IMG/VR virus record: IMGVR_UViG_3300025154_001556
DNA from: a virus
Lineage: Duplodnaviria > Caudoviricetes
DNA: 64,000 nucleotides
Reading direction: 5' to 3' (one strand)
In this document: piece by piece, positions 1 to 36,175 of the stretch
Numbering within the stretch: position 1 is the first letter of the stretch
Layout of the letters: each line of letters starts with the position of its first letter
Position numbers and translations under genes: made by a program
Notes under the pieces: generated by a model
Told to the model about the DNA's origin: nothing
Database searches by the model: none
The model's input: only the letters and a program-made list of their open reading frames with translations

Positions 1-15
1 TCAGACCATAAGCTG

Positions 16-483
16 ATGTGGCAGGCTTTTGAGGCCTCATCAAAATGGGTAACACGTCGAAATAATGATGCACTTGTTTTTGTAAATATGTACGGTTTAA
101 AGGTGCTGTTAGTAAAAGTAGCTAAACCCGATATAAACGCGTACAGCGTCATAGACCACTCAAATAATCTAAGATGTAATTGCATGGTAATGGACCATAA
201 TGGGCAAGTATTGGAGGTTGTTCCTGGGGCATATAAAGATTGTCAGGATAAAGCCATCTACTTGGCAAGTGAGTTTACATCGAGCAATAGTATGTCATTA
301 GAACGGTATGTGCATATACTTACGCAGGATGGTTGGTCTAATCATATATCACGCAAGTACCTTACACGTAAATCATCACATGGCAAAGTCCCCGTGCGGA
401 AAGGGGTTAATGCCAAAGGCAGTACTAGTAGTGCACTGCATGAAGCAATTATGTCTGCTCAACAGACAGAGCCCATATTTTAA
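16..483 (+). CDS. hypothetical protein (start uncertain)
   Basis: 155 aa ORF in the same orientation as its neighbours; no motif recognised. Confidence 0.45.
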   Translation: MWQAFEASSKWVTRRNNDALVFVNMYGLKVLLVKVAKPDINAYSVIDHSNNLRCNCMVMDHNGQVLEVVPGAYKDCQDKAIYLASEFTSSNSMSLERYVHILTQDGWSNHISRKYLTRKSSHGKVPVRKGVNAKGSTSSALHEAIMSAQQTEPIF

Positions 484-496
484 AGGAGTGATTATT

Positions 497-880
497 ATGG
501 AAGTGTTTGTATATGGTACACTAAAAGTTGGCGGCAGGTATGCGCACCTATTCAATAGGATGCGTAGTTTTGTTACCCAGGCAAAGGTAAAAGGAACTAT
601 GTATAGTGTGGGTGGTAGTTATCCAGCGGTGGTTCTCGATGGTGACACAGAGATAGCGGGAGAGTTGCATCAGTACCCTGATGATAAAAGGAAAGAAATA
701 CTTGCTCGGTTGGATTCCATTGAAGGTTACCGCGGTCCTGATAATGTCAATAATCTATACAACAGGAAAGAGGTGGAAGTTACCACAGCGGATGGGAAAA
801 GCGTTAAAGCAATGATGTATGTGTTTAACCGTGAAGTAGCGCAACTTGAGAAGGTGGCCGACGGGTATTGGCCTGTGTAA
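497..880 (+). CDS. gamma-glutamylcyclotransferase (GGCT/AIG2-like)
   Basis: N-terminal VFVYGTLK motif, G.YP, LD.IEG and Y.R..V motifs; RBS GGAG before ATG 497 (the track start at 308 is too far upstream). Confidence 0.9.
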   Translation: MEVFVYGTLKVGGRYAHLFNRMRSFVTQAKVKGTMYSVGGSYPAVVLDGDTEIAGELHQYPDDKRKEILARLDSIEGYRGPDNVNNLYNRKEVEVTTADGKSVKAMMYVFNREVAQLEKVADGYWPV

Positions 881-4104: not shown

Positions 4105-4968
4105 ATGTTCACGATAGGCGCCAAAATAAAGATACTTGGTAGCAGTTTACTGCGTAGCATGGGCCCTTGTACGGGTAGTACAGGATATGTAAGCCAAATA
4201 GACCACATACTTATGGAGGATTTCGGAGCCGTCCAGGAGGTTACAATATTTTTTGATCGTTTCGGTTATAAGTCTTCTGGTGGTCGTTGTGAAAAGAAAC
4301 GTGTCTTAAATATTGTCCCCTTTGAGACACCACCGTCTACTGTCATAAAAATGTTGCGTAAAAATCTTTCTTTTTTAAATGAATTAATTATGAGGAGTAC
4401 GGATAGGAAAGATTTAATCGAAATACCGAAAGTGGTACTAGCTCCAGCAGCTGCAGTCGATCTCAGTAAAATATCTATTCTTGAACAGCTGTGTTGGGCA
4501 AAAAGTATCCTTCATCCAGAAGATACAAGGTATTTATTATTGAATTGGGCATCAAGTAGAAAAAGCCCTAAGTCGAACTTTATCAGCGCTGACCTTTTAA
4601 AGGACATTAGTGAATTTGTGCTATTGCCAAGAGAAAAACAACTTGCTAAAATAGGTGAGAAGTTTGGTCAGCTGGTGGTAGCACATCGACTAATTAATAT
4701 TATTAACGAGGTTGATTTTCCTCCGCAGATAGTGGCACTTAATGGTCCTTACCAACAACTCTTACAGAAACTCTCATTGAATCACGGAATGCTTAAAAGT
4801 CACTTTGAGGAAGTACTTTTCAAGAGTTTGTTATTACAGGTTTGTTTTACACAAGCTTATGAGTATATTAAATATGTAACAAGAGGTGAACAGTTAAAAA
4901 ATGGTCGCAGCGCGGCTAGCATCATTAGAGAAACAGATCAATGGAAGGAGGATCTAAGTAAACTTTAA
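4105..4968 (+). CDS. hypothetical protein
   Basis: 287 aa ORF, GAGGGG RBS. Confidence 0.7.
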   Translation: MFTIGAKIKILGSSLLRSMGPCTGSTGYVSQIDHILMEDFGAVQEVTIFFDRFGYKSSGGRCEKKRVLNIVPFETPPSTVIKMLRKNLSFLNELIMRSTDRKDLIEIPKVVLAPAAAVDLSKISILEQLCWAKSILHPEDTRYLLLNWASSRKSPKSNFISADLLKDISEFVLLPREKQLAKIGEKFGQLVVAHRLINIINEVDFPPQIVALNGPYQQLLQKLSLNHGMLKSHFEEVLFKSLLLQVCFTQAYEYIKYVTRGEQLKNGRSAASIIRETDQWKEDLSKL

Positions 4969-5061
4969 ATCGGATGAATTGTTACATATAATACAGGTCC
5001 AGTACAGTGTATCTGAATGCTGTATACCAAGTAATTTTTCACATTGTGGAGGTAGTCTTTC

Positions 5062-8000
5062 GTGATAGAACTGATTAATAAACGGGTTAGTGACATTACA
5101 AGTACTTTTGCGTCAAGTTTAAGAAATGGGATGTTAAATAACATCGGTTCCAAGGTATTGGAAACGCCAGCAGGATTCAAACACGAATTGTTGGATAATA
5201 CCTTATGGTTGTACGTGAATGATATGGAGGGGGCACAGCACTCCATTGATATCCCGTTACCATTCACAGAGAATGGAGTGTTGCTGATAAAGCACAATGA
5301 TGTTAAACGTAGTTTAGGAAACCACCTGCTGGAACCAGCAGGAGAGATCCTGGATTATTTGAGTATTATTTCCAAAATAATATTTGAAGTATGTCCAGAG
5401 TTCATTCCACAATACTTGCAAAAACAAGTGCCTTTTATTTATCAGTTAGCCACCGGGGTAAAATGGGGCACAGTAGCTATAACCATCAAGAATCTGCAAA
5501 GTACAATAAACAACCTCATAAATGACTATCCGTTGCATGAGACTTATATGAATAGCTTTGCTATGAATCAAAGACTCATAATTGTTGACCCAGAGTTTGC
5601 CGGTTCAAACCCAAAAGTACGTCATGCTTACCAAATGGCAAAAGCAGATAAATATTTTCCCAAAGGCTGGTCCACCATGGGCTTATCTGACGGCGTGCTG
5701 TCCTCGAAAAACTACATATTGACCGTGGATTTACGGAGGCTTACACCTTTCGGTTTAAGCTATCATAACCCCCAAAGGAATCTTTATTCCACTTTGGGCA
5801 TGCGAGGAGATGAATCCCCGTTAATTATGACTGATTCAAACAAGTATCTGGCCGACCACGGTATTACACGCTCTGGCTGGAATCTGTTCACTGTATTCGT
5901 TGACATTCCTGATGTATGGGAAGATCAATTGATGATGGATATTTCTCACGCAAACAAAAGTGTGACTTACAACAAGAGGTACCAGCTGTTTGGAACACTG
6001 TCTGTAAAACAAGGGGATTCATTGAAAGTGGGCGCCGTGCTTTCTGTGGCAACAGATGGTGAAGTAACCACATTCAAAGAGATAGCTGATAAAGCAGTGG
6101 TCTCTGAAATAAACAACATTGTAACGAATGTAGGTGGAAAGAAAGTTCCCTCATTCAGTGTTATAGTGGCACTAACCCGTAAATTAAAGGATGGGGTCAA
6201 ACTCACTAATTTATCCGCAAACAAAGGGGTAATTCGATTAAAAGATCTTGGTTATGCGGTTGATCCCAGAACCGGGGAAAAGCGTAAAATTGATGTGATC
6301 GTTTCTTCACGAGCAGTACAAAAGAGGAAGAATTACGGACAGGTTATTGAGGCCCTGTCTAATAATTTAAATGACGAAAAGCCCACCATAGTAGCTGATA
6401 ACGTTACTGTGGACATAGCAGCATTGCCGGCAGCCCTTAAAGAAAAGGGATTCAAAGAGGATGGCACATGGGAATGTGACACTTATGCCGGAAAGTTCAA
6501 TTGTGTGGCAGGAAAAGTATTTTGGGGGGTCACACATGATGTAGAGGACATGCTTTGGACCAAAGCGGATACCAACATGACCAACGGTAGGGGGTTAAGA
6601 ACCGCCGGGTTGAAGTTCTCCACAGTAGAACTGCGTGCGTTAACAACACGCTTTGGAAAAGATAATGCCATTGTTGATGAGGTAATGTCTTACGCACAAG
6701 GGGCGGATGATTTGCAAGAGAAGCTGGACATACTTAAAGCAAAACGCGGCGAGCTGCCAGAAGGTAAATATGTTGTACCGTTCAGCAAAGTATTACCAGT
6801 AGATGTATCCAAGTCTACAATTGTACCAAAAGAAAATATAGTTGGTACGGTGGTAGATGAGAATTTTTATAAAGAAGGTTTCGTTCTTCAATTACCCATT
6901 ACTTTTGAAGTGCGCATACAAGAAAATGGTGAGATTGCATATGAAGGGGGTCCTTTACCTTCGGAAGTTGCAGCAGCGGCAGGCCAAATTGTTGTACAAA
7001 GTGACAAGATTTACATACCGTCTGCGCCATTAAGAAAATCATGGCGGCACGATACTGGTAATTACGGCCTAAGTGATACAGCCACCCTCATAAATAATGT
7101 CCTGTTGTTAAGTTACCGCTACGCCGCGGCCCCAACTGTGGATATAAACCACAAACTGCTGATGAATTCAATATTCGCTTACTTTGGCAGAACAGCTTTA
7201 TCGTTATCAACGAAGAAAGGGGATTTGAGTGTTTACGGAATGGCCGTCCGCTACCCGTTCTCTGCAAAAGCGGTGGCTACTTTGAGTAACAGCCTTCCAA
7301 AGAATACCATTGAGATACACAGATCAATGGCGGATGTACTGGAAGTGAATAATGACGACATTGTACTTGTGGAGAGATTCCCTTGCTTAGGCTTCATGTC
7401 TATTCGCCCGCAAAAGGTAAAAATCACCGACGATGAGCTGTGTCGTTATACCATCCGTGCAAGTGGTAACAGTTTGGGATCGTTGGGTTTGGATTTCGAT
7501 GGTGATGTTATTTATTTAGCCTCGTTTCATACGCCTGAAGCTAAGGAGGCTTTAAGGAGAGAATGGACCAACCCAAATAAAACTTGCTATGATAACATTT
7601 CGCTGTTAAATAACAAGATGGGTCGGCCGAGCACAAAAGCGTATTCTTTACAGGATTATGCGATTAAAGCATTTGCCCCATTGACAATGGAATCACATAA
7701 TGATATAGTGGATAAAGCCACAGGTGTAAAGAGCTATACAGGCCCTGTAATATCATTGGCCTACAATATCATGCGCATCATGGAAAACTCCGAAGTGAAA
7801 GACGATCAAAAGACCAATTGCGCAGTGGAAATGTTTTTAGACAGGGTAGCCAACTCCATATTCAAACAGAAACATGGCGCTGTCCCGTTAAGAGACATAG
7901 TTGTAGACGCAGTATGCACTGCAGATATAGAGACGCTGGTGCAACATGGTTTTGAAAGAAGTACCTCTACCATGATTTGTGATACCATAAAAAAGAAGGC

Positions 8001-8478
8001 TCTGTTACGGGGAGTTACTAACCTTGTAGAACACCATGAATTCATCAAAGCAAATAATCGAAGTAACATAATAAACACTATTATGCGAAACGAAAACTTG
8101 GTGTACTTTGCAAGCAGGTCGGCGCTTGAACCCTGCGAGCTTTTGTACCATTTGGAGCAGGAGGTAGTTGATATACCAAGCAAGTTACTGGCTTGGATTA
8201 TGTCAGTGAAATCCGAGAATGTGAGGAACATCCTAACTATTCGAAAAGAGGAGGCACCATTTAAAGCAATAAAGAATCATGCGTTCAGAGAAGCAGGACA
8301 AGAACTTGCACAGTACGTAGAAGATCTTTTAACCGCAAATGTAACTGCCAAAGAAAACACCCTCCCCACCGAGGAGGAGATAGGTGAATTAGTGGCTACA
8401 ACAAAAACATTTTTAAGGAGCATAAACTATGGCAAACGAGAAATCAACAACGCCCTACATGGGCATATCAATAAATGA
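5062..8478 (+). CDS. single-chain two-barrel DNA-dependent RNA polymerase (beta-like and beta-prime-like motifs in one polypeptide)
   Basis: Beta-like motifs: DGVKLTNLSANKGVI, IDVIVSSRAVQKRKNYGQVIE, AGLKFSTVELRAL. Beta-prime-like motifs: KKGDLSVYGMAVRYPFSAKAV, VLVERFPCL, catalytic LDFDGD at 7492-7506. GTG start with GGAGG RBS. Confidence 0.9.
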   Translation: MIELINKRVSDITSTFASSLRNGMLNNIGSKVLETPAGFKHELLDNTLWLYVNDMEGAQHSIDIPLPFTENGVLLIKHNDVKRSLGNHLLEPAGEILDYLSIISKIIFEVCPEFIPQYLQKQVPFIYQLATGVKWGTVAITIKNLQSTINNLINDYPLHETYMNSFAMNQRLIIVDPEFAGSNPKVRHAYQMAKADKYFPKGWSTMGLSDGVLSSKNYILTVDLRRLTPFGLSYHNPQRNLYSTLGMRGDESPLIMTDSNKYLADHGITRSGWNLFTVFVDIPDVWEDQLMMDISHANKSVTYNKRYQLFGTLSVKQGDSLKVGAVLSVATDGEVTTFKEIADKAVVSEINNIVTNVGGKKVPSFSVIVALTRKLKDGVKLTNLSANKGVIRLKDLGYAVDPRTGEKRKIDVIVSSRAVQKRKNYGQVIEALSNNLNDEKPTIVADNVTVDIAALPAALKEKGFKEDGTWECDTYAGKFNCVAGKVFWGVTHDVEDMLWTKADTNMTNGRGLRTAGLKFSTVELRALTTRFGKDNAIVDEVMSYAQGADDLQEKLDILKAKRGELPEGKYVVPFSKVLPVDVSKSTIVPKENIVGTVVDENFYKEGFVLQLPITFEVRIQENGEIAYEGGPLPSEVAAAAGQIVVQSDKIYIPSAPLRKSWRHDTGNYGLSDTATLINNVLLLSYRYAAAPTVDINHKLLMNSIFAYFGRTALSLSTKKGDLSVYGMAVRYPFSAKAVATLSNSLPKNTIEIHRSMADVLEVNNDDIVLVERFPCLGFMSIRPQKVKITDDELCRYTIRASGNSLGSLGLDFDGDVIYLASFHTPEAKEALRREWTNPNKTCYDNISLLNNKMGRPSTKAYSLQDYAIKAFAPLTMESHNDIVDKATGVKSYTGPVISLAYNIMRIMENSEVKDDQKTNCAVEMFLDRVANSIFKQKHGAVPLRDIVVDAVCTADIETLVQHGFERSTSTMICDTIKKKALLRGVTNLVEHHEFIKANNRSNIINTIMRNENLVYFASRSALEPCELLYHLEQEVVDIPSKLLAWIMSVKSENVRNILTIRKEEAPFKAIKNHAFREAGQELAQYVEDLLTANVTAKENTLPTEEEIGELVATTKTFLRSINYGKREINNALHGHINK

Positions 8479-8845: not shown

Positions 8846-8874
8846 GGGGCCTACCTGGTGTAAAGGTAGGCCCC
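8846..8874 (+). terminator. GC-rich hairpin after ssb, probable intrinsic terminator
   Basis: GGGGCCTACCT / AGGTAGGCCCC perfect 11-bp inverted repeat followed by GATTTGCTTT. Confidence 0.6.
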
Positions 8875-8896: not shown

Positions 8897-9313
8897 ATGG
8901 GTATACATTTGATGCTTGGTGGACATTCAGCCGGTTCTGCCGAGTTGTTACAACCAAATACGGTTTTAGATCGAGTAGCTCTTCTTGAAAAGAAGTTGGA
9001 TGCTATGACCAAAGCATTTTTGGCGGCGAGAAGGAGCTTATTAAAAAAGAACACCGAAGAAGAAGTTGGGGAAGATATAATTAATCCGAATGAAAACAAG
9101 GACGGTCTACCGTATAATACTTGTTATATTGGAATATCAAGAGGCATTCCCTACATATTAACTATAAATGCTGTCGGGCAATATATTGTTGCAGATAAAG
9201 TATTTAATACATTATCCGCCGCAGCAGAAGCAGTAAGTGGTGTACGAAGGAGTGGTTGGGCATTCTGGAAGTTGCTTGATGGAAGATCCATTAAAGACGT
9301 TTACAGGAAATAA
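8897..9313 (+). CDS. hypothetical protein with C-terminal RAMA/DUF4357-like motif
   Basis: FNTLSAAAEAVSGVRRSGWAFWK resembles the F.S.S.AA..V.G...GW..W signature. Confidence 0.55.
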   Translation: MGIHLMLGGHSAGSAELLQPNTVLDRVALLEKKLDAMTKAFLAARRSLLKKNTEEEVGEDIINPNENKDGLPYNTCYIGISRGIPYILTINAVGQYIVADKVFNTLSAAAEAVSGVRRSGWAFWKLLDGRSIKDVYRK

Positions 9314-9314
9314 C

Positions 9315-9905
9315 ATGGGCAAGAAAAAAAAGAAGTACAGAGACAACACCTCAAAGAAGTGCAGAGGTAACACCTCATCTATTATGAGTAAGTCGGAGTT
9401 CATTGCCAAATACTGCCGAAAGTGTGGTATATGCACCATTGCAACAAATGCCACATTTTGCTATGACATTATGTATAAGCAATCCCCGCAAGAATTTGTG
9501 GGTTGCGCTTACAATGTTTTAAATAACACTTTGGAATGGCCCACCAGAGAAGATGCACAAGAAACATTCATAGAAGACACTTTCTGTAGATCTGGTGCCT
9601 GTGATGTTATGGTAAATCCTTTTGATTATAGAAGTACCTGTGAGTATATAAAAGAGTGTAGGCAAGCATTTGAAGCACAGGTGGCTGATGATTATTCACA
9701 AGATTACAACGACTTTGCAAGTAACGGTTGGGATTGTGCTCATGGGACTACCAACAAAGAAAAGAAAGCGAACAAAACAAAAGTAAAACAAGCGACAGTA
9801 GCAGTCAATAGAACAATGCAAGCAACTTTTTTTACGAACGGCGATGACGCATGGAGAGAAAGCATGAAGCAGGCAATAATTGATGAAGATAACAATAGCA
9901 AATAG
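9315..9905 (+). CDS. hypothetical Cys-rich protein
   Basis: ATG 9315 right after the previous stop; several CxxC-like pairs. Confidence 0.6.
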   Translation: MGKKKKKYRDNTSKKCRGNTSSIMSKSEFIAKYCRKCGICTIATNATFCYDIMYKQSPQEFVGCAYNVLNNTLEWPTREDAQETFIEDTFCRSGACDVMVNPFDYRSTCEYIKECRQAFEAQVADDYSQDYNDFASNGWDCAHGTTNKEKKANKTKVKQATVAVNRTMQATFFTNGDDAWRESMKQAIIDEDNNSK

Positions 9906-11289
9906 AATCAGGGTTAGAGACCCTGGGGTGTTGAAAGAGGTCATAATGAATGAGTTAAGGATGGAGAATCCTAAGTACGAAAGTGCCGTCAGTAATGGAC
10001 GCAGTACCTTTAAAATTCCTCCAACCTTATTTAATTTTTCAATACTTCCTGATGATAGTCTGAGTGTACCAAGGGGGTACCTTAAACGATTACAGCAGCT
10101 ACTTGTAGACTTTAATATAAAAGATTACACCATTGAAGATGAGCGGTTCATGGGCCCGTTTAATTTTGATATAGACTCCTCTAACATAAAGTTACGAGAC
10201 TATCAAATGAAGGCTATAACTAACTTAATTTCAAATGGCACTGAGGGGCTATTGTTAGCGCCAGCAGGTAGTGGAAAGACAGTTATGGGGGTAAGCCTGA
10301 TACCTATGTTAGGTCAGCAAATGCTGTGGCTTACCCATACAAAACCTCTAATGAACCAAGTCATTGAACGTGTCCAGAGCTTCTTACCTTGTTTAGGCAA
10401 AGAAGATATAGGTACAATAGGTAGTGGTAAATGGGATGTAGGAAAAGTATTTACTGCTGCAATGGTTCAAACATTGGTTCGTAATCCAATAGAAACGTAT
10501 AAATTAAAGAACCAATTTGGTATAGTTGTATTGGATGAATGCCACCATTTGCCTTGCACTACATTTACACAGGTGGTAGGATCTTTAAATCCATATTATT
10601 TGTATGGTTTAACTGCTACCCATCTAAGAAGAGACGGGATGCATAAGTTGATGTTTCAAACTATGGGGCCTATTCTACACACTGTGCCATTAGCAGATGT
10701 TAAAAAGGGTGGTAATATTATAGTACCACAAATACACTGTCGTCATATAAACTGTGTAAGTATCCACGCCCCCGACTTTGGTAACATCTTAACCGAATTA
10801 GCAAATGATGAGTGTAGAAACAACCTTATTGTAAAAGATATAGTAAACGAAGCAACACAAGGAAACATCTGTGTAGTAATTACAGAACGAAGAAATCACG
10901 CGGATATATTATTTAATAAAATTAGTAAACAATGGCCAAAAACAGGGATAGCCACAGGAAGTTACTCATCAAAAGACAACAAAACAACTTTGGAACTACT
11001 ACGTGATGCTAAGATATCTGTCTTAGTAACTACTTCTGCCTTATTGGGAGAAGGTTTTGATCATGCCCCAATAAACAGGGGATTTATTTGCCTACCTTTT
11101 AGAAATATGGTTAAAACAGAACAAGTAATAGGCAGAATACAGCGTAGTGCAAAAGATAAAGATGATGCCATCATTTATGATTATATAGATAAGCATTCTT
11201 TATTAGAGCACCAATTCAAAAATAATGGTAGTTATGGATGCAGACATAATATATACATTAAGTTGGGATGTCGCATACGAGTAGCTTGA
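9880..11289 (+). CDS. superfamily 2 DNA helicase (ResIII/UvsW-like DExH)
   Basis: Q motif LRDYQ, Walker A APAGSGKT, DECHH, GLTAT, GEGFD, QVIGRIQR. Confidence 0.92.
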   Translation: MMKITIANRIRVRDPGVLKEVIMNELRMENPKYESAVSNGRSTFKIPPTLFNFSILPDDSLSVPRGYLKRLQQLLVDFNIKDYTIEDERFMGPFNFDIDSSNIKLRDYQMKAITNLISNGTEGLLLAPAGSGKTVMGVSLIPMLGQQMLWLTHTKPLMNQVIERVQSFLPCLGKEDIGTIGSGKWDVGKVFTAAMVQTLVRNPIETYKLKNQFGIVVLDECHHLPCTTFTQVVGSLNPYYLYGLTATHLRRDGMHKLMFQTMGPILHTVPLADVKKGGNIIVPQIHCRHINCVSIHAPDFGNILTELANDECRNNLIVKDIVNEATQGNICVVITERRNHADILFNKISKQWPKTGIATGSYSSKDNKTTLELLRDAKISVLVTTSALLGEGFDHAPINRGFICLPFRNMVKTEQVIGRIQRSAKDKDDAIIYDYIDKHSLLEHQFKNNGSYGCRHNIYIKLGCRIRVA

Positions 11290-11332: not shown

Positions 11333-12487
11333 ATGAAATTAAATTTGAAATGTTCTTATGTTATGGATCTCAAAGCTACATTTCTCGAAGACCGTACCAT
11401 AAGAATGCCTCAAAAGTATAGAGAACTTTTAGGCTGTGATATAGGACAATTTATTGGACTAAAAACTGTTGATAATGACATTTTAAGTCTACAAGTTATG
11501 CAGGCGTTCAAAGAGGATGTAGAACAAGATGAAAACAGCGCCTATGTAACATCAGCACTATTTAACGTTTTAAATGTTGGCAATCAACATGAATATGATT
11601 TAAAAGTTGTAGACGACATTACATTAGGCTGTGACCCAGAATTTTTTCTACTTTCAGATAAAAAAGTGGTACCAGCTAATAGATACTTCAATAAGCATAA
11701 TCCTGTTGGTAGTGACGGCATGTTAGCAGAGATAAGACCTGCCCCAAGTATAGATGAACATGTGGTTGTAAACAACATAAGAAAGCAATTGATAGAAGCC
11801 AGATCACATATAAACAAAAGAGGACATGAGCATATAAAACTATATGCAGCCTCAGGTTATGGCGGTTTAACTGCTGGGTTTCATTTACATTTTGGTTTAC
11901 CAAACAGTTTATTAGGAAATACTGATATAAAAAAACCTGTTATTGAACAAATAGTTAGGGTACTTGATTACTATGTAGGTATGCCTTGTGTTTTACAAGA
12001 AGGTATAGAAGATAGTCAAAGAAGGTGTGCCACGTTTGTGCCCTATGGTAAAGCAGGTGATTACCGTTTAGATTACAGAACTTTGGAATATAGAGTTGTT
12101 GGCGGTGCTATGTTGAAACATCCAATATTAACAACTGGTTTATTATCTTTGGGTGCCGTTGTTATAGAAGACATAGTAAGCAGAATAAAATTATGTACTG
12201 ACGATTTTGCAAACTTTTCTTTCATCAATAATGATTTAAATTTAAATAAATTATATCCAAACGTACCATCAAACCACGAGTTAATTGAGTTGGTAGGTGT
12301 TCCTGGTACAGAAGGGGTCACCAGACACATAGATAAAATAGTTACCGACGTGGGTAAGATGGTGGGTTTTCATAAAAGAAGTGCGGCAATTGAGCAATTT
12401 TTAATAAACCTACAAAATAAGTTTAGTCACAGTATAGATGATAATTGGTTACTTAACAGTAATAAATTATACTATAATGGGCTATAA
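11333..12487 (+). CDS. phiEco32-like COOH-NH2 ligase type 2 (copy 1)
   Basis: TLGCDPEFFL, GSDGMLAEIRP, AGFHLHFG, YGKAGDYR, LEYR. Confidence 0.85.
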   Translation: MKLNLKCSYVMDLKATFLEDRTIRMPQKYRELLGCDIGQFIGLKTVDNDILSLQVMQAFKEDVEQDENSAYVTSALFNVLNVGNQHEYDLKVVDDITLGCDPEFFLLSDKKVVPANRYFNKHNPVGSDGMLAEIRPAPSIDEHVVVNNIRKQLIEARSHINKRGHEHIKLYAASGYGGLTAGFHLHFGLPNSLLGNTDIKKPVIEQIVRVLDYYVGMPCVLQEGIEDSQRRCATFVPYGKAGDYRLDYRTLEYRVVGGAMLKHPILTTGLLSLGAVVIEDIVSRIKLCTDDFANFSFINNDLNLNKLYPNVPSNHELIELVGVPGTEGVTRHIDKIVTDVGKMVGFHKRSAAIEQFLINLQNKFSHSIDDNWLLNSNKLYYNGL

Positions 12488-16380: not shown

Positions 16381-16430
16381 GAATAAAGGGTACTTCAAGA
16401 TTAACCACTAATGTGGAGGATAATATATTT

Positions 16431-18287
16431 ATGTGCGGTATTATAGGTGCGGCCATTTTCGGCCCTAAAGCAGATAAAAATGAGGAAACAGCCAGACAGA
16501 AATCAATGATCTATCTGGTAACTCAATTGCTGCAAGAAACCAAAGTACGTGGTGAGGACGCAACTGGCATCGCCACATTATTCAGAAATGGCCTCTATAC
16601 CGGCTTGAAAATGGGAGTAGATTCTGAAGTATTTACGACACGGTATGGCAACGGGGAGGAAAACTACGAAGGCTACCTTCGCAGATGGCAATTAAACGCC
16701 AATCCAGCAGTAATGTGCCTTGGACATTGCCGTAAATCGTCCGTAGGTGGTAATTGGGATAATAAAAACAATCATCCCATACGTGTGCGAGACACAATAG
16801 GTGTGCATAATGGTACACTGAAAAACCATAATCAAATTTTTCAACAATTACAGTCTGGAAGAGACGGTACGGTGGACAGTGAAGCAATCATTCGTCTTCT
16901 TGGGCATTATTCCCAGAATGGGGCAGAGCCATTTACCACAAAAATGATTGATGAAGTAACCAGAAGACTGGATGGTACCTTTGCGGTGCTGGCATTTAAC
17001 GGTAATAATCCGTTCCAATTGGTTACTTTTAGAGATGGTAGACCAATGGAGTATGCTTTAATCAAGCCATTGAATATGCTGCTGGTTGCTTCGGAGCAAA
17101 AGTTCCTCAAGAGAGTCTTGATGGAATATAATAATATGGCCCGGTTGTACTCATTCAAAGAGTTTAAACCAATAATCGCCTCTGATGTAGAATTTGAGAT
17201 GTTAAGACATAATGGCCAGGCCATTTTTGATCTTACGCGGGAAGTAACAGACAAGACAAAAATCTTTGACTTATGTGAACTGGAAAATTTGCCGGTAGCA
17301 AAAATATGGAAGGTAGGTACAAAACCGCCGGAACATAACGTAAGTAGCGGCAATTTAACGACCAAATATAACGATGCGGTTAAACAGACACATCATCACA
17401 GTGGACATACAGAACAAAAGGCAAAGCCGGCAATCAGCTTGAAGGGTAAAGCAGGCTTTATCTGGATAAAGTCTTTAAAAGAATACAGGTGCGCTACCGA
17501 ATTTGGTAGCAGTGATCCGACTGTCGAAGAGGATAAAAAAACATTCGATCTGGATGTAGAGATTGAGACTTCTAAGGCTACTATTACAGTAGAGCCATCG
17601 CCAGTGCTTGGTGGAAATGTAGCGTTTACCGGCAAATTGAAGGAAACTGACAACGTGGAGAATCTGGTAAGTAATCCAGTGAAAGTACAGGATTTGTCTC
17701 CCGCAGCTGCCGGAAAAGCCGCCGATAAGGACAAAAATACCAAAACTGTTGATATGACAGTAGATCCCACGGCATTAGAAGAGGCAAACGAGGCGAGTAA
17801 AAACCTACCAACTCTGGAAAGTGATGAGGATGTTGGCGCAGCCTTGGAAATAGCTGATTTAAGGTCTTTACAAGCCTTACCGCTTCCGGCATTATGCAAC
17901 AGGGTACGAAGGAGTGCCTTTAAAAAGGGCTACTATGATGGCATGTTAAAAGCATATGAGTTGTTGGAGGTCTATACTGCACCTGTAAACCCGGTGGAAG
18001 AGCATACTAAAGATAAAATGGAACAAAAGCTTTTAAAAGCGCAGAAGCAGATAAGACTTTTAAAAGTAGTAATCCATTTGTTTTCAAAACTGGTAGACTC
18101 TTTGAAAAAGAATACCACCGGCACTATGTTTATGCGTATGACACAAGCAACGAACAAATTAGGCCTCGTAGCAGCGAAACAAGGGCTTACTCAGGAAGGG
18201 TTTGACAAATTGTTTACGCAGGGAGATTTACGAAGCAACGATAATCTTATAGCATTGAAAAATGCCATTGGCGATGAGGAGGAGTAG
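16431..18287 (+). CDS. class II glutamine amidotransferase (Ntn hydrolase) with long C-terminal extension
   Basis: MCGIIG start, RGEDATG, GHCRKSSVG, NNHPI, GVHNGTLKN, VDSEAI, RDGRPM. Confidence 0.9.
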   Translation: MCGIIGAAIFGPKADKNEETARQKSMIYLVTQLLQETKVRGEDATGIATLFRNGLYTGLKMGVDSEVFTTRYGNGEENYEGYLRRWQLNANPAVMCLGHCRKSSVGGNWDNKNNHPIRVRDTIGVHNGTLKNHNQIFQQLQSGRDGTVDSEAIIRLLGHYSQNGAEPFTTKMIDEVTRRLDGTFAVLAFNGNNPFQLVTFRDGRPMEYALIKPLNMLLVASEQKFLKRVLMEYNNMARLYSFKEFKPIIASDVEFEMLRHNGQAIFDLTREVTDKTKIFDLCELENLPVAKIWKVGTKPPEHNVSSGNLTTKYNDAVKQTHHHSGHTEQKAKPAISLKGKAGFIWIKSLKEYRCATEFGSSDPTVEEDKKTFDLDVEIETSKATITVEPSPVLGGNVAFTGKLKETDNVENLVSNPVKVQDLSPAAAGKAADKDKNTKTVDMTVDPTALEEANEASKNLPTLESDEDVGAALEIADLRSLQALPLPALCNRVRRSAFKKGYYDGMLKAYELLEVYTAPVNPVEEHTKDKMEQKLLKAQKQIRLLKVVIHLFSKLVDSLKKNTTGTMFMRMTQATNKLGLVAAKQGLTQEGFDKLFTQGDLRSNDNLIALKNAIGDEEE

Positions 18288-18292
18288 GTCGA

Positions 18293-19606
18293 ATGGTAAA
18301 TAAAAGTAGCCTAGTACTCATGGTGTCGCCCCAAATGGATAACAACAAGAAGGAAGACCGTAACGAGCACGGCCTTGTAAGAATGACTGCAAAAACACGA
18401 GCGTTGATGGGATTCAAGGAAGATACTGTTGAGCTCTGGAATGGAGAGTCAGATCTTACGAGAATAAAGTCCTCAACTGTGTTATCTATCTTTAAAGCTT
18501 TCTCCGCCGATATAGCGGCAGCGAAAGCTCTTGTAGAGAAGGGGGAACTTGACAAAGAGGCCATTTATAACGTAGCCTTTGTTACCACAAGAACATATCA
18601 ACGTATAATGGCTGACCACAAAAATGACAAGAACATATGGGTTACCGATGGTGTTGCTGACACCGTAATAGGTGCCGACCCAGAGTTTTTGTTGTTTACC
18701 AAAGAAGGGCTTGTAAGACATGCCAACAGTATAGCCCATCTCAAAAAAGATGGTTTAATAGGATTTGATGGGGCAATGGCAGAAATACGCCCTGATCCTG
18801 CTGTAACACCAGAGGGTTTGGTAAAGAGTATAAGTAGCATATTCCATAATGATGCATACACCAAACCCATCATGGACTTTGATTGGAAAAGTGGCGTTTA
18901 TCATAAGGACAAAAACCGCGATTACCCAATAGGTGGACACATCCATATTGGCAATCCCGCAAAGGTTGCAAGAATTTCTGCAGACGAAAGAGAGTTGTTT
19001 TTCAGAGTATTGAATAAAATTCTTGATGAGTTGTTGTCGTTGCCGATGATGCGCCTTGATGGGGAGGCTGGAACCCAACGCAGAACCAAATGCCAAATGG
19101 GTAACTACGGCTACTTTGGGGCCTATCGAGTACATGATGGTCGGTTGGAGTATCGAACTCTTTCCGGTTTATGGTTGGCCCACCCAACGCTTACAAAAAT
19201 AGTCATGGGCGTGGCCAAAGCAATAATTGATGACGTATATTACAAGGTTTATGAAAATCAGTTTGCAATGTCGTATATGTGCCCTAACAAATTTAAAGGG
19301 GTAAATGTATTAAAAGCAGACTTTGATTCATGGGATGGTATCCCCTTAGCCAAGGATATTGGCTGTGTAAGAACCTCCAAAGTAATGTTTGATTTAATCA
19401 ATAAATCAGACGCAAAAATTGTTGACAAAGCATTTGTTACCGACTGGTATACTACCATGCGAGGCCTATCTTCTTACGAAAAATATCGAAGATATATAGA
19501 TGATTTAAAAACACTGCTTTCTCGTCCTCTAAAAGAGCTGCAAAATATCAATACAGATATTAAAGCAGGTTGGCTGGACGGTGAAGAATTTTCAATTAAA
19601 CTTTAA
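18293..19606 (+). CDS. phiEco32-like COOH-NH2 ligase type 2 (copy 2)
   Basis: IGADPEFLL, GFDGAMAEIRP, IGGHIHIG, YGYFGAYR, LEYRTLSG. Confidence 0.85.
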   Translation: MVNKSSLVLMVSPQMDNNKKEDRNEHGLVRMTAKTRALMGFKEDTVELWNGESDLTRIKSSTVLSIFKAFSADIAAAKALVEKGELDKEAIYNVAFVTTRTYQRIMADHKNDKNIWVTDGVADTVIGADPEFLLFTKEGLVRHANSIAHLKKDGLIGFDGAMAEIRPDPAVTPEGLVKSISSIFHNDAYTKPIMDFDWKSGVYHKDKNRDYPIGGHIHIGNPAKVARISADERELFFRVLNKILDELLSLPMMRLDGEAGTQRRTKCQMGNYGYFGAYRVHDGRLEYRTLSGLWLAHPTLTKIVMGVAKAIIDDVYYKVYENQFAMSYMCPNKFKGVNVLKADFDSWDGIPLAKDIGCVRTSKVMFDLINKSDAKIVDKAFVTDWYTTMRGLSSYEKYRRYIDDLKTLLSRPLKELQNINTDIKAGWLDGEEFSIKL

Positions 19607-19621
19607 CAAGAGGTAAAAAAC

Positions 19622-28506: not shown

Positions 28507-28821
28507 ATGAGTAAAGAGTTCGATATTGACGACTTTATGTTTGGTCTGGGATTTGGTTACGACCTCTCCTGCGGTGAAAACGGAAGAGACTCGTTTGATT
28601 ATGACCCAGAAGTTGATGATGTTCTTGAAATCTCTGCTGCTGATAGAGCAGATCTTATAGAAGATCTCGTCGAAATGACCGCTAACATGGAAGCAGGTGT
28701 TTCAAGTGCATCAACAGAGTTCGAGAAGGTGAGATTTTCAGATAGTATAATGGATCGAAGAAAACCTTTCGAGGTTTTTGTAGATCATTACATTCAGGAT
28801 CTTAACGATGGCCGAAGATAA
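28507..28821 (+). CDS. acidic hypothetical protein
   Basis: Asp/Glu-rich ORF overlapping the next start. Confidence 0.6.
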   Translation: MSKEFDIDDFMFGLGFGYDLSCGENGRDSFDYDPEVDDVLEISAADRADLIEDLVEMTANMEAGVSSASTEFEKVRFSDSIMDRRKPFEVFVDHYIQDLNDGRR

Positions 28822-29587
28822 CAGTAGAATGCTTAGATTGATTGCTAAACCAGGTTCAAAAGCGAGAAAAGATATCACAGCTGCTACTGGTATAGGCCGG
28901 TATACCGGAGACAAAAACAACTCTGTTGTAGCCATCATAAATTATGGTGTATGTGGGGATCATCTTAGCACTTTTCTGAAAAAATATCCAGTCGCGGCAA
29001 AAGTACCTATGCTAAACAAGGGCATAGGCTGTGCTAAATACACAGCAGTTAAGGCCGCAGAGAAAGAAGGTATTGTTGTACCTGAAACACGCCTAAGTCT
29101 TTCAAAAGAACACAAATTAACAGACTGGATAATTAAAAGACAGCATTCTATTGGTGGTATCGGGATAAAATATGCCCAGAATAAAAATCAAAACCCAGGG
29201 CACTATTATCAAAAGTTTGTATCAAACAGGAAGTATGAATTGCGTGTACATGCGTTTACTTGGACCAAATGTACGGTGCAAAAGCGCATTGGAAAGTCAG
29301 ACATTATAGCTTGGAACTTCAAAAATGGTGGACATTTCTTAAATGTACAGCAGCCAGAAAAGTACAAGCTATTCCGAGAAGCAGTACAAGTAGCATTGAA
29401 AATTCTTGAAATAAGAGCCATGGCTTTTGGTGCCGTGGATTTTATTGTGGATACTGAGGGAAAGTTATACTTTATTGAGGTGAATTCCTCCCCTGGTTTT
29501 ACTGACTTCAGTAAACACATATATGTTGATGCTTTCACAGCATTGACTAAATGTAGTAAAGCACAGATACTCGGTCTGTGTGCGTAA
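28808..29587 (+). CDS. ATP-grasp protein (second copy)
   Basis: WIIKRQHSIGGIGI, YYQKFV, YELRVHAF, FGAVDF, FIEVNSSPG. Confidence 0.85.
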   Translation: MAEDNSRMLRLIAKPGSKARKDITAATGIGRYTGDKNNSVVAIINYGVCGDHLSTFLKKYPVAAKVPMLNKGIGCAKYTAVKAAEKEGIVVPETRLSLSKEHKLTDWIIKRQHSIGGIGIKYAQNKNQNPGHYYQKFVSNRKYELRVHAFTWTKCTVQKRIGKSDIIAWNFKNGGHFLNVQQPEKYKLFREAVQVALKILEIRAMAFGAVDFIVDTEGKLYFIEVNSSPGFTDFSKHIYVDAFTALTKCSKAQILGLCA

Positions 29588-29910: not shown

Positions 29911-30438
29911 GTGAATAAAGCACTGATCATTATAGATATGCTTAATGACTTCATCATGGAAAACGGCGCTTTATATTGTGGCAAAGCAGCTTCGGATATA
30001 GTAGCGCGGATAAAGGATAAATTGGAGTTGGCAAGAAAAAATAATGATGTGGTTATTTTTCTGTGCGATGCTCATAAATCGTACGATAAGGAATTTCAAC
30101 GTTTTCCAAAGCACGCTGTAATACATACAGTAGGTGCTCAAATAATTAACGATCTTTCCCCGGTGGAAAGAGGCCGCGAGTATGTTATTAAGAAAACGCG
30201 TTATAGTGGTTTCTATAATACCAATTTGAATGTGGTATTAAAATTAAATAATATAACACATGCGGAAGTTGTTGGTGTTTGTACCCACATCTGTGTGATG
30301 GACACGGTAGGGGGATTAGCCAACCGGGACATAGCTACTTTTATTGATAAGTCAGCTGTTGCTGATTTTGACAAGGCTGCTGCAGACGCCGCTCTCCTGC
30401 GTATGCAGTCTATATACGGAACAGTCGTGGTTCCGTAG
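29911..30438 (+). CDS. pncA: nicotinamidase (isochorismatase family)
   Basis: LIIIDMLNDF, GALY, D.H, FPKHA, KTRYSGF, VGVCTHICV (catalytic D, K, C); family alone is ambiguous but operon context supports PncA; GTG start. Confidence 0.85.
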   Translation: MNKALIIIDMLNDFIMENGALYCGKAASDIVARIKDKLELARKNNDVVIFLCDAHKSYDKEFQRFPKHAVIHTVGAQIINDLSPVERGREYVIKKTRYSGFYNTNLNVVLKLNNITHAEVVGVCTHICVMDTVGGLANRDIATFIDKSAVADFDKAAADAALLRMQSIYGTVVVP

Positions 30439-30451
30439 TTGTTTCTCCAAT

Positions 30452-30483
30452 GATGGGCGGGGTGGGAGACTACCCTGCCCATC
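30452..30483 (+). promoter_or_regulatory. GC-rich intergenic hairpin between pncA and the radical SAM gene
   Basis: GATGGGCGGGGTG / TACCCTGCCCATC stem with G-U pairs; no U tract, so it may be a processing or stabilising hairpin. Confidence 0.4.
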
Positions 30484-30499
30484 TCTTACGAGGACCATA

Positions 30500-31360
30500 A
30501 TGAAAAAGATAAGCACTTTATCTGTTGTAACCGGCACCAATAGCTGCAATGCAAAATGCCCATTTTGTATAGCCAGAATGACTCCGCAACAAAGTGCTAT
30601 GAACAACATCAATTATCGTAATTTGGACATAGCCTGTCGCTTGGCGGAAAAAGCCGGCGCTGTAACCGCACTAATAACTGGTAAAGGTGAACCTACCTTA
30701 TACCCAGATACCATCTCTTTCTACCTCACAAACCTCTCCAAGTACTTTCCAATCCTTGAATTACAAACCAACGGTTTGATACTCCCCGATGATAAATATA
30801 ATAAGTTTTTAAAAAGTTGGTACGGTCTTGGCCTTACAACAATATCCTTATCCATCGTACATTATAATGACTCCCGAAATAAGGAAATATACACTGGTAA
30901 TAGGGATTATATCAACTTACAATTGTTAATAAACAAGTTGCATAATTACGGATTTAGTGTTAGACTAAGTGTAATCGCGCTGAAAAATTATATAGATTCA
31001 CCGATGGAAATCGCCCGTATGATTAAATTTGCTAAGGATAATAAAGTTGCACAACTAACCATAAGACCTATGGTAGTTTATGAAGCAACGGCCAATAAAA
31101 AAGTTTTAAACTGGGCATTATCCCACACCATCGGCCCTAATTGGGAAGACATTGTTGCTAAAACACTAAGTAAAATAAAAAATACCTTCTTAATGAATCT
31201 TACTCATGGTGGTAAAGTATACGATGTCTCCGGACAAAATGTGTGTTTCAATACTTGTTTAACTTTAAACCCAAACGAGGATGAATTGAGGCAATTAATT
31301 TATTTTCCTGATGGAAAAATAACCTATGATTGGAGATATAAGGGAGCTAGAATAATATGA
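30500..31360 (+). CDS. radical SAM protein
   Basis: CNAKCPFC (CxxxCxxC), TGKGEPTL, LQTNG, SLS; AGGA RBS before ATG 30500. Confidence 0.88.
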   Translation: MKKISTLSVVTGTNSCNAKCPFCIARMTPQQSAMNNINYRNLDIACRLAEKAGAVTALITGKGEPTLYPDTISFYLTNLSKYFPILELQTNGLILPDDKYNKFLKSWYGLGLTTISLSIVHYNDSRNKEIYTGNRDYINLQLLINKLHNYGFSVRLSVIALKNYIDSPMEIARMIKFAKDNKVAQLTIRPMVVYEATANKKVLNWALSHTIGPNWEDIVAKTLSKIKNTFLMNLTHGGKVYDVSGQNVCFNTCLTLNPNEDELRQLIYFPDGKITYDWRYKGARII

Positions 31361-32676
31361 AATCAACGGCAGACTTTCACATGAGACCATTAATAAACAG
31401 TTTATTGGATAATGACGCGTATACATTTTATATGTGCCAATTCATACTAAGCAGATTTAAAGGTACCATTGCTAAATATAAATACAAATGCCGTAATGGT
31501 AACGGTTTTCCTGCTGACATTAGTTATGATCAAAAACACTCATTCGTAGCAATGATGAATAGTCAAATAGACTCTTTCTGTAAATTACGATTTAATGAAA
31601 CGGAAATTCGATTTTTACGGGGGACAGGAAAATTTAAAGAGTACTTCTTAGATTTTCTTAGAACACTTACTTTGGATAGATCTCATATAAAAGCTACACT
31701 TGTAGGTGGTGCTTTATATATTGAGATAGAAGGCCCAATAGAACAGGTAATCTGGTATGAAACACCGGTGCTTGCTTTAAATAGCGAGCTGTATTATCGT
31801 TTTTATGATATCACACTGGACAAATATATTGACAATCAAGCCAACTTTAAACCAGCGTATTTATTTACAATAAAAAATAGTGAGAGACATGCAAATAGTT
31901 TAAATGTGGCTAGGAAAAAGTTGCTCGCTAAAATAGAGAAGATACGTAAAACCAATCTACCCGGTTTCAATATCATTGATTTTGGAACAAGAAGGAGGGC
32001 TGCATTTGATTGGCATGAGAAGGTAGTGGCCACACTTCACAAGGAAATACCTGATGTTTTAAAAGGTACCTCTAACTGTTATTTGGCCATGAAATATGGT
32101 TTGCCTATGATCGGTACTATGGCACATCAAATGTTTCAAATGTATCAACAAATTACTTCTGCCTATGATAGCCAGATAGACTTGCTGACTGCTTGGCGAG
32201 AGGAGTATGGGGATAAATTATTAATTGCTTTAAGTGATATATTTGGCTTTGAAGCCTTCCTATCCGATTTTAGGCACTTTGCTGATCAATACTCTGGGGT
32301 TCGCCATGACAGCGGTAACCCTTATATTTGGTGTGACAAATTGTTGCAGCTTTATAATAAGCGGAATATTGACGCAAAGAGTAAGACTGCTGTTTTTAGT
32401 GACGGCTTAGATGTGGATAAAGCCCTCAATCTTTACGCCACTTTTTACAACAAAATAAATGTAGCCATTGCTATTGGCACCAACCTTACAAATGATACAG
32501 ATGTCGAAGCATTACAAATTGTAATTAAACTCGTTGAGTTTAACCACGGCCCGGTAGCAAAAGTGAGTGACTCTCCTGGAAAAGGGATGTGCGAGAGTAA
32601 AGAGTATGAGGAATACATAAGCTACATTGTAAGCCGAAAAGAAAAGGAGTACAAAGAATGGCTAGAAAACAAGTAG
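31357..32676 (+). CDS. pncB: nicotinate phosphoribosyltransferase
   Basis: SLLDNDAYTFYMCQ, IWYETPVL, DFGTRRR, GTSN, GTMAHQ, ALSD, GVRHDSG, FSDGL, IGTNLTND, IVIKL, AKVSDSPGK. Confidence 0.95.
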   Translation: MKSTADFHMRPLINSLLDNDAYTFYMCQFILSRFKGTIAKYKYKCRNGNGFPADISYDQKHSFVAMMNSQIDSFCKLRFNETEIRFLRGTGKFKEYFLDFLRTLTLDRSHIKATLVGGALYIEIEGPIEQVIWYETPVLALNSELYYRFYDITLDKYIDNQANFKPAYLFTIKNSERHANSLNVARKKLLAKIEKIRKTNLPGFNIIDFGTRRRAAFDWHEKVVATLHKEIPDVLKGTSNCYLAMKYGLPMIGTMAHQMFQMYQQITSAYDSQIDLLTAWREEYGDKLLIALSDIFGFEAFLSDFRHFADQYSGVRHDSGNPYIWCDKLLQLYNKRNIDAKSKTAVFSDGLDVDKALNLYATFYNKINVAIAIGTNLTNDTDVEALQIVIKLVEFNHGPVAKVSDSPGKGMCESKEYEEYISYIVSRKEKEYKEWLENK

Positions 32677-33266
32677 CCTTATTTGGTGGGGCATTTGATC
32701 CTGTAACATTAGGACATATATTGGTAGCAAAGATGATGCTCGGGGTAGCAAATTTTGATAAGATATGGTTCTTGCCGAGCTATCATTCCTGGAATGATAA
32801 AAATATGCAGGACGCCAATCACCGTTTAAACATGTTAAAGTTAACATGTAATGACATTTCTGATAAACGTATAAATGTTTGTTCCTACGAGATAGCCAAC
32901 AAGTTGATAGAACCAACAGTTGTTGTTTTAGATCGCTTGGCCTCATATATCGATGCGGATTTTTTCTTTTGTATCGGAACAGATCAAGCCGCAGAGATTG
33001 AAACTTGGCATGAGTGGGAACGTTTGATAAGTCAGTACTCATTTGTAGTTATGGAGCGTCCAGGTAGCCCGTATGTAGAGGGCAGTTGGTATACTATCGG
33101 AAAACATAAATTTGTTAAATGTACCTCCGGCATAGGCAACGTGTCTTCTACTGAGGTACGTAAGGAAATTGCCAGAGAGGGTATATCATACAATGTGACA
33201 CAATCTGTAATGCAATATATTAAAGATAATAACCTTTATAAGGGGGCTTTGAAAATAAATGCTTAG
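32658..33266 (+). CDS. nadD: nicotinate-nucleotide adenylyltransferase
   Basis: ALFGGAFDPVTLGH, HRLNML, FCIGTD, W..WE.L, VSSTEVR, V..YI..NNLY. Confidence 0.92.
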   Translation: MARKQVALFGGAFDPVTLGHILVAKMMLGVANFDKIWFLPSYHSWNDKNMQDANHRLNMLKLTCNDISDKRINVCSYEIANKLIEPTVVVLDRLASYIDADFFFCIGTDQAAEIETWHEWERLISQYSFVVMERPGSPYVEGSWYTIGKHKFVKCTSGIGNVSSTEVRKEIAREGISYNVTQSVMQYIKDNNLYKGALKINA

Positions 33267-36166: not shown

Positions 36167-36175
36167 GTGAGCGCC

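Follow-up and report, generated by a model that had tools for sequence, protein, structure and literature searches.

To our knowledge, only a handful of single-chain relatives of the multisubunit cellular RNA polymerase (RNAP) exist: YonO, the killer-plasmid enzyme, crAss gp66, and gp64 and gp96 of Thermus phage P23-45. Most single-chain RNAPs have lost nearly all sequence likeness to the cellular enzyme, and in the killer-plasmid RNAP the C-terminal part of beta-prime comes from a separate small product, that of ORF7. Here we describe a further single-chain RNAP, that of an uncultured jumbo phage from groundwater, encoded on the plus strand of a 64,000-nt stretch of DNA (termed the window in what follows) from the Caudoviricetes record IMGVR_UViG_3300025154_001556 of IMG/VR. 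In this chain of 1138 amino acids (aa) a half resembling the bacterial beta subunit precedes a half resembling beta-prime.

Phage P23-45 encodes two such enzymes. One, gp96, is a flat, clamp-less virion RNAP fused to the tape-measure protein; it is injected and transcribes the pre-early genes, including the gene of gp64, the free non-virion RNAP that in turn transcribes early and middle genes (PMC10770324). Another feature that separates the known enzymes is an SBHM domain inserted in the beta barrel, which is found in the cellular, killer-plasmid and phiKZ-type enzymes and is lacking in YonO and in enzymes of the RNA-dependent RNA polymerase type (PMC7824862).

Cellular multisubunit RNAPs have separate beta and beta-prime chains on an alpha dimer plus omega, whereas here both halves lie in one open reading frame (ORF). 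The RNAPs of phiKZ/AR9-like jumbo phages come in virion and non-virion pairs and have beta-like barrels close in fold to that of the present enzyme, yet they are split into four or five polypeptides. In the single chain the conserved blocks come in the same order as in bacterial beta and beta-prime, and it has in common with these subunits both barrels, a flap, the coiled coil of the clamp, a bridge helix and a trigger loop.

Sequence and fold of the single chain

The RNAP gene starts with GTG, about 8 nt downstream of a GGAGG ribosome-binding site, and its product can be aligned with homologues from residue 1-12 on. A sequence-only reading of this DNA had proposed a polymerase collinear with bacterial beta then beta-prime, and all 12 of the motifs that it quoted in that order are present in the translation, between residues 229 and 939. 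In order these are PFGLSYHNPQRNL (229-241), GWNLFTVFV (272-280), WEDQLMM (286-292) and GVKLTNLSANKGVI (378-391); they continue with RKNYGQVIE (422-430), GLKFSTVELRAL (516-527), KKGDL (718-722), VRYPFSAKAV (729-738), VERFPCL (770-776), LDFDGD (810-815), DIVDKATGVKSYTG (881-894) and DRVANSIFKQKHG (927-939). The chain has 41% of the combined length of E. coli beta and beta-prime (1342 + 1407 aa), well under half, as that reading had said.

Two Pfam domains are recognized in the chain: RNA_pol_Rpb2_6 at residues 342-469 (E 1.8e-5, over its curated cut-off) and RNA_pol_Rpb1_2 at residues 747-828 (E 1.4e-4, slightly under its cut-off). PHROGs returned marginal matches (E ~1e-4) to two 'RNA polymerase beta subunit' families, which are families of phiKZ/AR9-like subunits. 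When the RNAP alone was searched against PDB sequences, bacterial beta was reached at E 0.03, in an alignment that covers both K380 and K388; a profile of 26 family members gave E 1.5e-4 for beta, 0.05 for the AR9 non-virion RNAP beta-prime and 0.06 for P23-45 gp96. These two lysines are spaced 8 residues apart, as in GDKxxGRHGNKG, and provide the basic residues looked for in the second barrel. Comparison of the family profile with E. coli beta by hhalign aligned 69 columns around them (E 8.5e-5). The same comparison with E. coli beta-prime gave nothing significant, and it is thus Pfam and the fold that support the assignment to beta-prime. Likeness to the cellular enzymes at this level is real, being beyond chance, yet local: it takes in short active-site blocks only, and with bacterial beta is limited to ~70 residues around the two lysines.

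A confident model of the fold was made with AlphaFold2 from the family alignment (mean pLDDT 82.9, pTM 0.76), and Foldseek against the PDB matched it to beta/Rpb2 subunits at E ~1e-13. In VIA-align superpositions residues 1-546 fit bacterial beta with Z 18.7 (483 residues aligned) and the second-largest subunits of African swine fever virus (ASFV), Pol IV, Pol I and vaccinia with Z 16-18.5. Chain 7s00_C of the AR9 non-virion RNAP gave Z 18.6, with a root-mean-square deviation of 3.6 Å over 266 residues, and 7ogp_C of the phiKZ non-virion RNAP gave Z 15.9. Residues 562-1046 fit archaeal Rpo1N, Pol II Rpb1, Pol I A190 and bacterial beta-prime with Z from 11.5 to 9.7, the last value being that of beta-prime.

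The domains read from these superpositions are mapped in Table 1. Both double-psi beta barrels (DPBBs) expected of such an enzyme are predicted: DPBB-B, placed in the model at about residues 272-500, falls inside the beta superpositions (Z ~18) and DPBB-A matches isolated DPBBs (Z ~8). The latter holds R730-x-P732, R772-F-P774 and D811-F-D813-G-D815 (nt 7492-7506), and so has the DxDxD arrangement of a metal-binding site. Residues 301-372, which interrupt DPBB-B, resemble an SBHM flap, with a moderate Z on a predicted model. Because this insert is present, the family stands on the cellular side of the SBHM divide. An archaeal clamp (3qqc_A) superposes with Z 7.3 over residues 546-722. The bridge helix and trigger loop that had been put forward as possible coincide in position with a model helix (876-908) and a helical hairpin (916-952), the latter bearing the invariant pair K937-H938. 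Most lineage-specific cellular domains have no counterpart in the model; accessory factors may be needed, so the term 'minimal' that had been applied to the enzyme is not established.

Single-chain enzymes superpose less well than the beta subunits: QDE-1 and RDR2 reach Z 11.7, P23-45 gp96 8.1 and P74-26 gp62 8.0. The values for QDE-1 and RDR2 extend over both halves of the chain, and the universal neighbours of the gene encode an SSB-type protein and a helicase of SF2 (see below), as might suit a primer-making replication polymerase or a QDE-1-like enzyme acting on an RNA template. We nevertheless judge such a role decidedly improbable, for the chain superposes better on beta and beta-prime (Z ~18), the SBHM flap is present, and phage neighbourhoods mix functions.

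Among 550,129 Swiss-Prot models Foldseek placed K2ORF6p of the Kluyveromyces lactis plasmid pGKL2 (UniProt P05472, 982 aa) at the top: its E of 5.6e-21, over query residues 39-891, was better by eight orders of magnitude than that of the second-ranked model. This killer-plasmid polymerase is also a single chain with its beta-like half before its beta-prime-like half, and like the phage RNAP it keeps the SBHM insert in the beta barrel (PMC7824862). There are clear differences. K2ORF6p belongs to a eukaryotic cytoplasmic plasmid, not to a phage; the match to it stops at about residue 891, whereas the phage RNAP has bridge helix and trigger loop in the same chain; and identity is 11%, with K2ORF6p absent from the 99 matches (E <=1e-3) to the phage enzyme in 1.84 billion representative proteins. 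It is the closest known architecture, on the evidence of a modelled fold, and the likeness is one of fold only.

YonO (SPbeta, a Bacillus prophage; 839 aa) is likewise a phage-encoded single-chain homologue of multisubunit RNAP (PMC5467207). Membership of its family was considered and rejected, with an hhalign probability of 0.7% and the SBHM flap present in our enzyme. At 616 aa, P23-45 gp64 is about half the size of the phage RNAP, which is much nearer to cellular beta/beta-prime; gp64 gave no match when the PDB was searched with the family profile and E values up to 1 were accepted. Against residues 1-1200 of gp96 the family profile scored a probability of 91% (E 1e-6) over 76 columns, all of them in DPBB-A. 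The RNAP is not a member of the YonO, P23-45 gp64 or crAss/QDE-1 families, and it appears to be distinct from the gp96 family too. Neither is it a close orthologue of any characterized family with the same architecture, an outcome that would have told against its novelty: YonO did not match, gp64 shares the DxDGD block and gp96 the DPBB-A columns, and tblastn found nothing in 50,697 deposited phage genomes.

A conserved family with relatives in tape-measure proteins

Clustered at 90% identity, the relatives obtained by a word-indexed search make up at least 437 clusters, with proteins of 1050-1240 aa that are ~50% identical to the query and lie on contigs of up to 327 kb. The 99 matches of the exhaustive search contain ~25 full-length clusters (at the 50% identity level), reaching down to 33% identity, with a steep fall in score below them; among the 1.84 billion proteins neither beta nor beta-prime of any cellular enzyme appeared at E 1e-3. 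Across 22 cluster representatives (33-46% identity) the invariant residues are D288, K380, K388, R422, K718, R730, P732, R772, P774, D811, D813, D815, K890, K937 and H938, together with T893, G894, Y901 and R905, which with K890 lie in the bridge helix. This is the pattern expected of an active polymerase, and it argues for purifying selection on catalysis.

Every source names the family members 'hypothetical protein' only. UniProt A0A0F9QJZ1, which is 36% identical (AlphaFold DB, TM 0.82), has the automatic label 'DNA-directed RNA polymerase', and AlphaFold DB contains a further, different single-chain enzyme of 1262 aa (E 2.9e-25, TM 0.49). No match to the RNAP was found by tblastn and megablast in 50,697 deposited phage genomes, nor in cyanobacterial or Ruminococcus genomes. 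These null searches argue weakly against identity with 'Cyano_RUMTOR_01356', an in-house single-subunit RNAP family of Chaban et al. 2024. The full-text literature yielded no description of the family, although subscription journals could hold an earlier mention. The RNAP thus belongs to a large, conserved family of the two-barrel superfamily that is undescribed in the literature searched. The suggestion that a chain retaining both beta and beta-prime motifs may represent a distinct lineage fits a family of this size that appears to stand apart from YonO, P23-45, crAss and QDE-1.

Near-verbatim copies of the RNAP gene are present in groundwater metagenomes of several studies; sequencing runs listed as RNA gave no match, which says nothing on expression either way. 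Some homologues come from metagenome-assembled genomes labelled Muribaculaceae, Arcobacteraceae, Woesearchaeota, Stahlbacteria and Patescibacteria, as might be seen if the gene were cellular and mis-binned, or a dead relic. Yet this scatter over unrelated phyla, on short contigs, resembles that of mis-binned phage contigs. IMG/VR viral records of 70-238 kb also contain homologues, the same genes being found in those of 228-238 kb, and the catalytic residues are all invariant, which leaves the notion of a relic or a stray cellular gene scarcely credible. In distant relatives on two short Logan contigs (L026 and L027) a beta-like protein (P0194, 506 aa) and a beta-prime-like protein (P0186, 537 aa) are encoded by separate, overlapping ORFs; this is either a split enzyme or a frameshift, the contigs being too short to tell.

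One weak match of the exhaustive search, P0210, is a protein of 5013 aa in which residues 523-1530 contain the same motif series, including LDFDGD. Two near-complete related IMG/VR records, G001 (238 kb) and G002 (228 kb), each encode a free enzyme of 1.1 kaa as well as a giant ORF with an RNAP module. The giant ORF exceeds 3307 aa in G001, where it is cut by the contig end, and has 7488 aa in G002, where a PhageMin_Tail tape-measure core is found at about aa 3500-3700 (E 4.8e-25). In the G002 frame (L034/L035, ~171.7-194.2 kb, minus strand) the RNAP module occupies approximately aa 1150-2300, and there are weak matches resembling leucine-rich repeats near the C-terminus. At this length it would be one of the longest recorded proteins of the tape-measure kind.

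By hhalign, the profile of the free enzymes matched that of three modules from tape-measure proteins with 99.5% probability and E 2.8e-22 over 454 columns. In sequence these modules are the nearest relatives of the free enzyme, far ahead of any cellular enzyme. A search of BFVD ranked first a 'minor tail protein' of an uncultured siphovirus. Because free enzyme and tape-measure module occur together in G001 and G002, these related phages appear to carry two polymerases. The phage group would in this respect be like P23-45: each system has a free single-chain two-barrel RNAP and an RNAP module in a giant tape-measure protein, and within each the two enzymes are each other's closest relatives. 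When our profile of the tape-measure modules, built from only 3 sequences, was compared with gp96, the result was not significant.

We consider it probable that the free chain is an active DNA-dependent RNAP serving as the non-virion transcriptase of the phage. Its reduced beta-like half would supply the lysine/arginine barrel and the flap, whereas clamp, bridge helix, trigger loop and the DFDGD barrel that binds Mg would come from the likewise reduced beta-prime-like half. As with P23-45, the free RNAP would be made after infection and transcribe phage genes without the host enzyme, while the paralogous tape-measure module would be the injected enzyme that starts the transcription programme. 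The choice of DNA as template, the timing, the division of labour and the independence from the host polymerase are inferred by analogy.

Several observations weigh against this assignment. The non-virion role is modelled wholly on enzymes of different families, and the distance is considerable: against gp64, hhalign gave a probability of 10% over 68 columns, covering the DxDGD block only, so that the analogy crosses families. A k-mer search of the 23 intergenic stretches of the window found no shared promoter motif. Host-type promoter-like sites are present in the window only at chance frequency (39 sigma-70-type sites, with 37 expected from shuffled sequence), and given that frequency the weak site 5' of the RNAP gene (Table 1) is a lead, not a finding.

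Several phage two-barrel RNAPs are virion enzymes, namely crAss-like gp66, the phiKZ virion RNAP and P23-45 gp96 (PMC10770324), and by their example the free RNAP might itself be packaged and injected to transcribe early genes. This seems improbable to us: its gene has genes of nucleic-acid functions and metabolism (SSB, helicase, ligases) around it rather than structural genes, and it has a full clamp, in contrast to the flat, clamp-less gp96.

Neighbouring genes and the sigma factor

The non-virion transcriptase proposed above is encoded within a syntenic block, seen in 11 of 11 related loci. Besides the RNAP the block includes a class-I glutamine amidotransferase/peptidase C26 (1308-2027), the SSB-type protein, a DUF4357/RAMA-like protein, an SF2 helicase, phiEco32-type COOH-NH2 ligases and amidotransferases. 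Coordinates of the main features are given in Table 1.

Table 1. Features of the RNAP gene, its product and its surroundings in the window
Feature	Position (nt)	Strand	Evidence and remarks
Sigma-70-like promoter-like site (TTTAAA, 17 nt, TATAAT), 70 nt 5' of RNAP start	4964..4992	+	Weak evidence
RNAP gene (protein P0001), single-chain beta/beta-prime RNA polymerase, 1138 aa	5062..8478	+	Open frame of 1138 codons, Pfam, AlphaFold2 model, Foldseek
Reduced N-terminal beta-like region, residues 1-222	5062..5727	+	Inside beta, Rpb2 and ASFV/vaccinia superpositions (1..542-546, Z 16-18.7)
DPBB-B, beta-type double-psi barrel, residues 223-503; E287-D288, K380, K388, R422	5728..6570	+	VIA-align, Pfam Rpb2_6
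SBHM flap-like insert interrupting DPBB-B, residues 301-372	5962..6177	+	Isolated beta-flap 3tbi_B Z 7.1, 3woe_A Z 6.8
Beta-prime-type clamp region, residues 562-728	6745..7245	+	Superpositions begin at 558-562, Z 9.7-11.5
Two-helix clamp coiled coil, residues 672-715	7075-7206	+	DSSP helices of model
DPBB-A, beta-prime-type double-psi barrel, residues 729-835	7246..7566	+	Pfam Rpb1_2; isolated DPBB 7dww_A Z 8.1, 7dbo_B Z 7.8
Bridge-helix candidate, residues 876-908, single 33-residue helix	7687..7785	+	Model; inside beta-prime/Rpb1 superpositions
Trigger-loop candidate, residues 916-952, helical hairpin (helices 916-938, 944-952)	7807..7917	+	Model
SSB/PriB-type OB-fold protein, 132 aa	8429..8827	+	Own AAGGAG site; 50-nt overlap with RNAP stop
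Hairpin, 11-bp stem	8846..8874	+	3' of SSB-type gene
Sigma-70-family gene, 243 aa, regions 2 and 4	22937..23668	+	Pfam Sigma70_r2 E 1.2e-10

In each of the 11 loci the RNAP gene is followed downstream by the SSB-type gene. Its product has no Pfam or PHROGs match; its AlphaFold2 model (mean pLDDT 82.5) was matched to SSB structures by Foldseek at E 8e-8, with TM 0.62-0.78, and its C-terminus has a short conserved P-x-LP-like tail. The hairpin that follows is likely the terminator closing an RNAP-SSB unit. Next comes, in all 11 loci, a gene (8897-9313, +) whose product of 138 aa has a C-terminal domain with weak likeness to DUF4357/RAMA, and, in 10 of the 11, that of the ResIII/DEAD helicase of SF2 (9880-11289, +). 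A Rad25-like SF2 helicase tracks with phiKZ-like phage RNAP genes (PMC7824862).

The sigma-70-family protein encoded further downstream also matches TIGR02937 over its full length, with 51 bits against a cut-off of 42.9 bits. The related records G001, G003 and G005 have orthologues on the strand of the RNAP gene, 13-17 kb downstream from it, and thus in 4 of 6 records with the present one. Two more sigma/RNAP pairs share their longest-contig sizes (47,016 and 40,367 bp), which suggests that the members of each pair sit on the same contig. The exact sigma sequence is found on a contig of 236.8 kb; the genome is therefore at least ~237 kb long. From its sequence the protein is a candidate specificity factor, either for the RNAP or for the host enzyme.

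In the former case the non-virion transcriptase would be a two-protein holoenzyme, in which the coiled coil of the clamp (672-715) would receive sigma region 2 and the flap (301-372) region 4, a refinement of the proposal above and not an exclusive alternative to it. The RNAP keeps precisely these two elements, the sigma docking sites of bacterial enzymes; the sigma protein has both regions, its position is conserved, and the two additional pairs are probably co-located. However, no sigma gene was found in G002 (86% complete) or G004, though the syntenic stretch is present in both. Characterized phage sigma factors (T4 gp55, phiEco32 gp36) redirect the host polymerase, and this usual role counts against such a holoenzyme. 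We regard it as a tentative and rather unlikely arrangement, and it is doubtful that this is the first single-chain RNAP of cellular type still working with a sigma-70-family factor.

Other genes of the window bear on different functions. Peptide-modification genes surround the RNAP gene (308-2027, 11333-12487, 16413-21195 and 28808-29587, all +) and are mostly syntenic in relatives; the set consists of GGACT, the peptidase C26/glutamine amidotransferase, two phiEco32-type COOH-NH2 ligases, a class-II glutamine amidotransferase, two ATP-grasp (RimK-like) proteins and a GNAT protein. A row of genes at 29911-34089 (+) forms a set for deamidating salvage of NAD; in order, it encodes a PncA-like isochorismatase, a radical SAM protein, NAPRTase, a NadD-like protein (cytidylyltransferase-like) and NAD synthase. 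An Rfam scan of the window at gathering thresholds gave 0 matches. Below threshold, a full-model match to YrlA (Y RNA-like; 34.9 bits, E 3.7e-5, gathering score 69) falls at 25965-26081 (+), in a gap of 1035 nt (25285-26319). It is directly 5' of a Ro60/TROVE gene (26604-27989), with genes for a CCA-adding enzyme (23881-25284) and an RNA ligase (36167-36811) near, and the two may form a phage-borne Ro60/Y-RNA module. At about 40.8 kb the coding strand switches from plus to minus, as does the GC skew (~40800), whose cumulative curve peaks at ~40 kb. The minus-strand block that follows includes a hybrid sensor kinase of 1205 aa (54141-57758, -) with SBP_bac_3, PAS, GAF, HisKA, HATPase_c and receiver domains.

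Implications

An enzyme of 1.1 kaa in which flap, bridge helix, trigger loop and the coiled coil of the clamp are all kept offers a tractable minimal model of the catalytic core of the cellular enzyme for studies of structure, mechanism and inhibitors, and is a possible orthogonal transcription tool. If the sigma factor does act with it, a full promoter-specific machine would consist of two small phage proteins, of 1138 and 243 aa. For the debated relationship between viral and cellular RNAPs, the family provides one more lineage, and one that is well sampled.

The paralogy of the family with polymerase modules in tape-measure proteins of 5,000-7,500 aa shows that the strategy of fusing a polymerase to the tail, described in 2024 for one thermophilic phage, is widespread among jumbo phages of the environment. 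If the RNAP does work with a sigma factor, it and its tape-measure-embedded paralogue would together give uncultured jumbo phages an old, widespread two-polymerase programme, parallel to that of P23-45 and built from other polymerase families.

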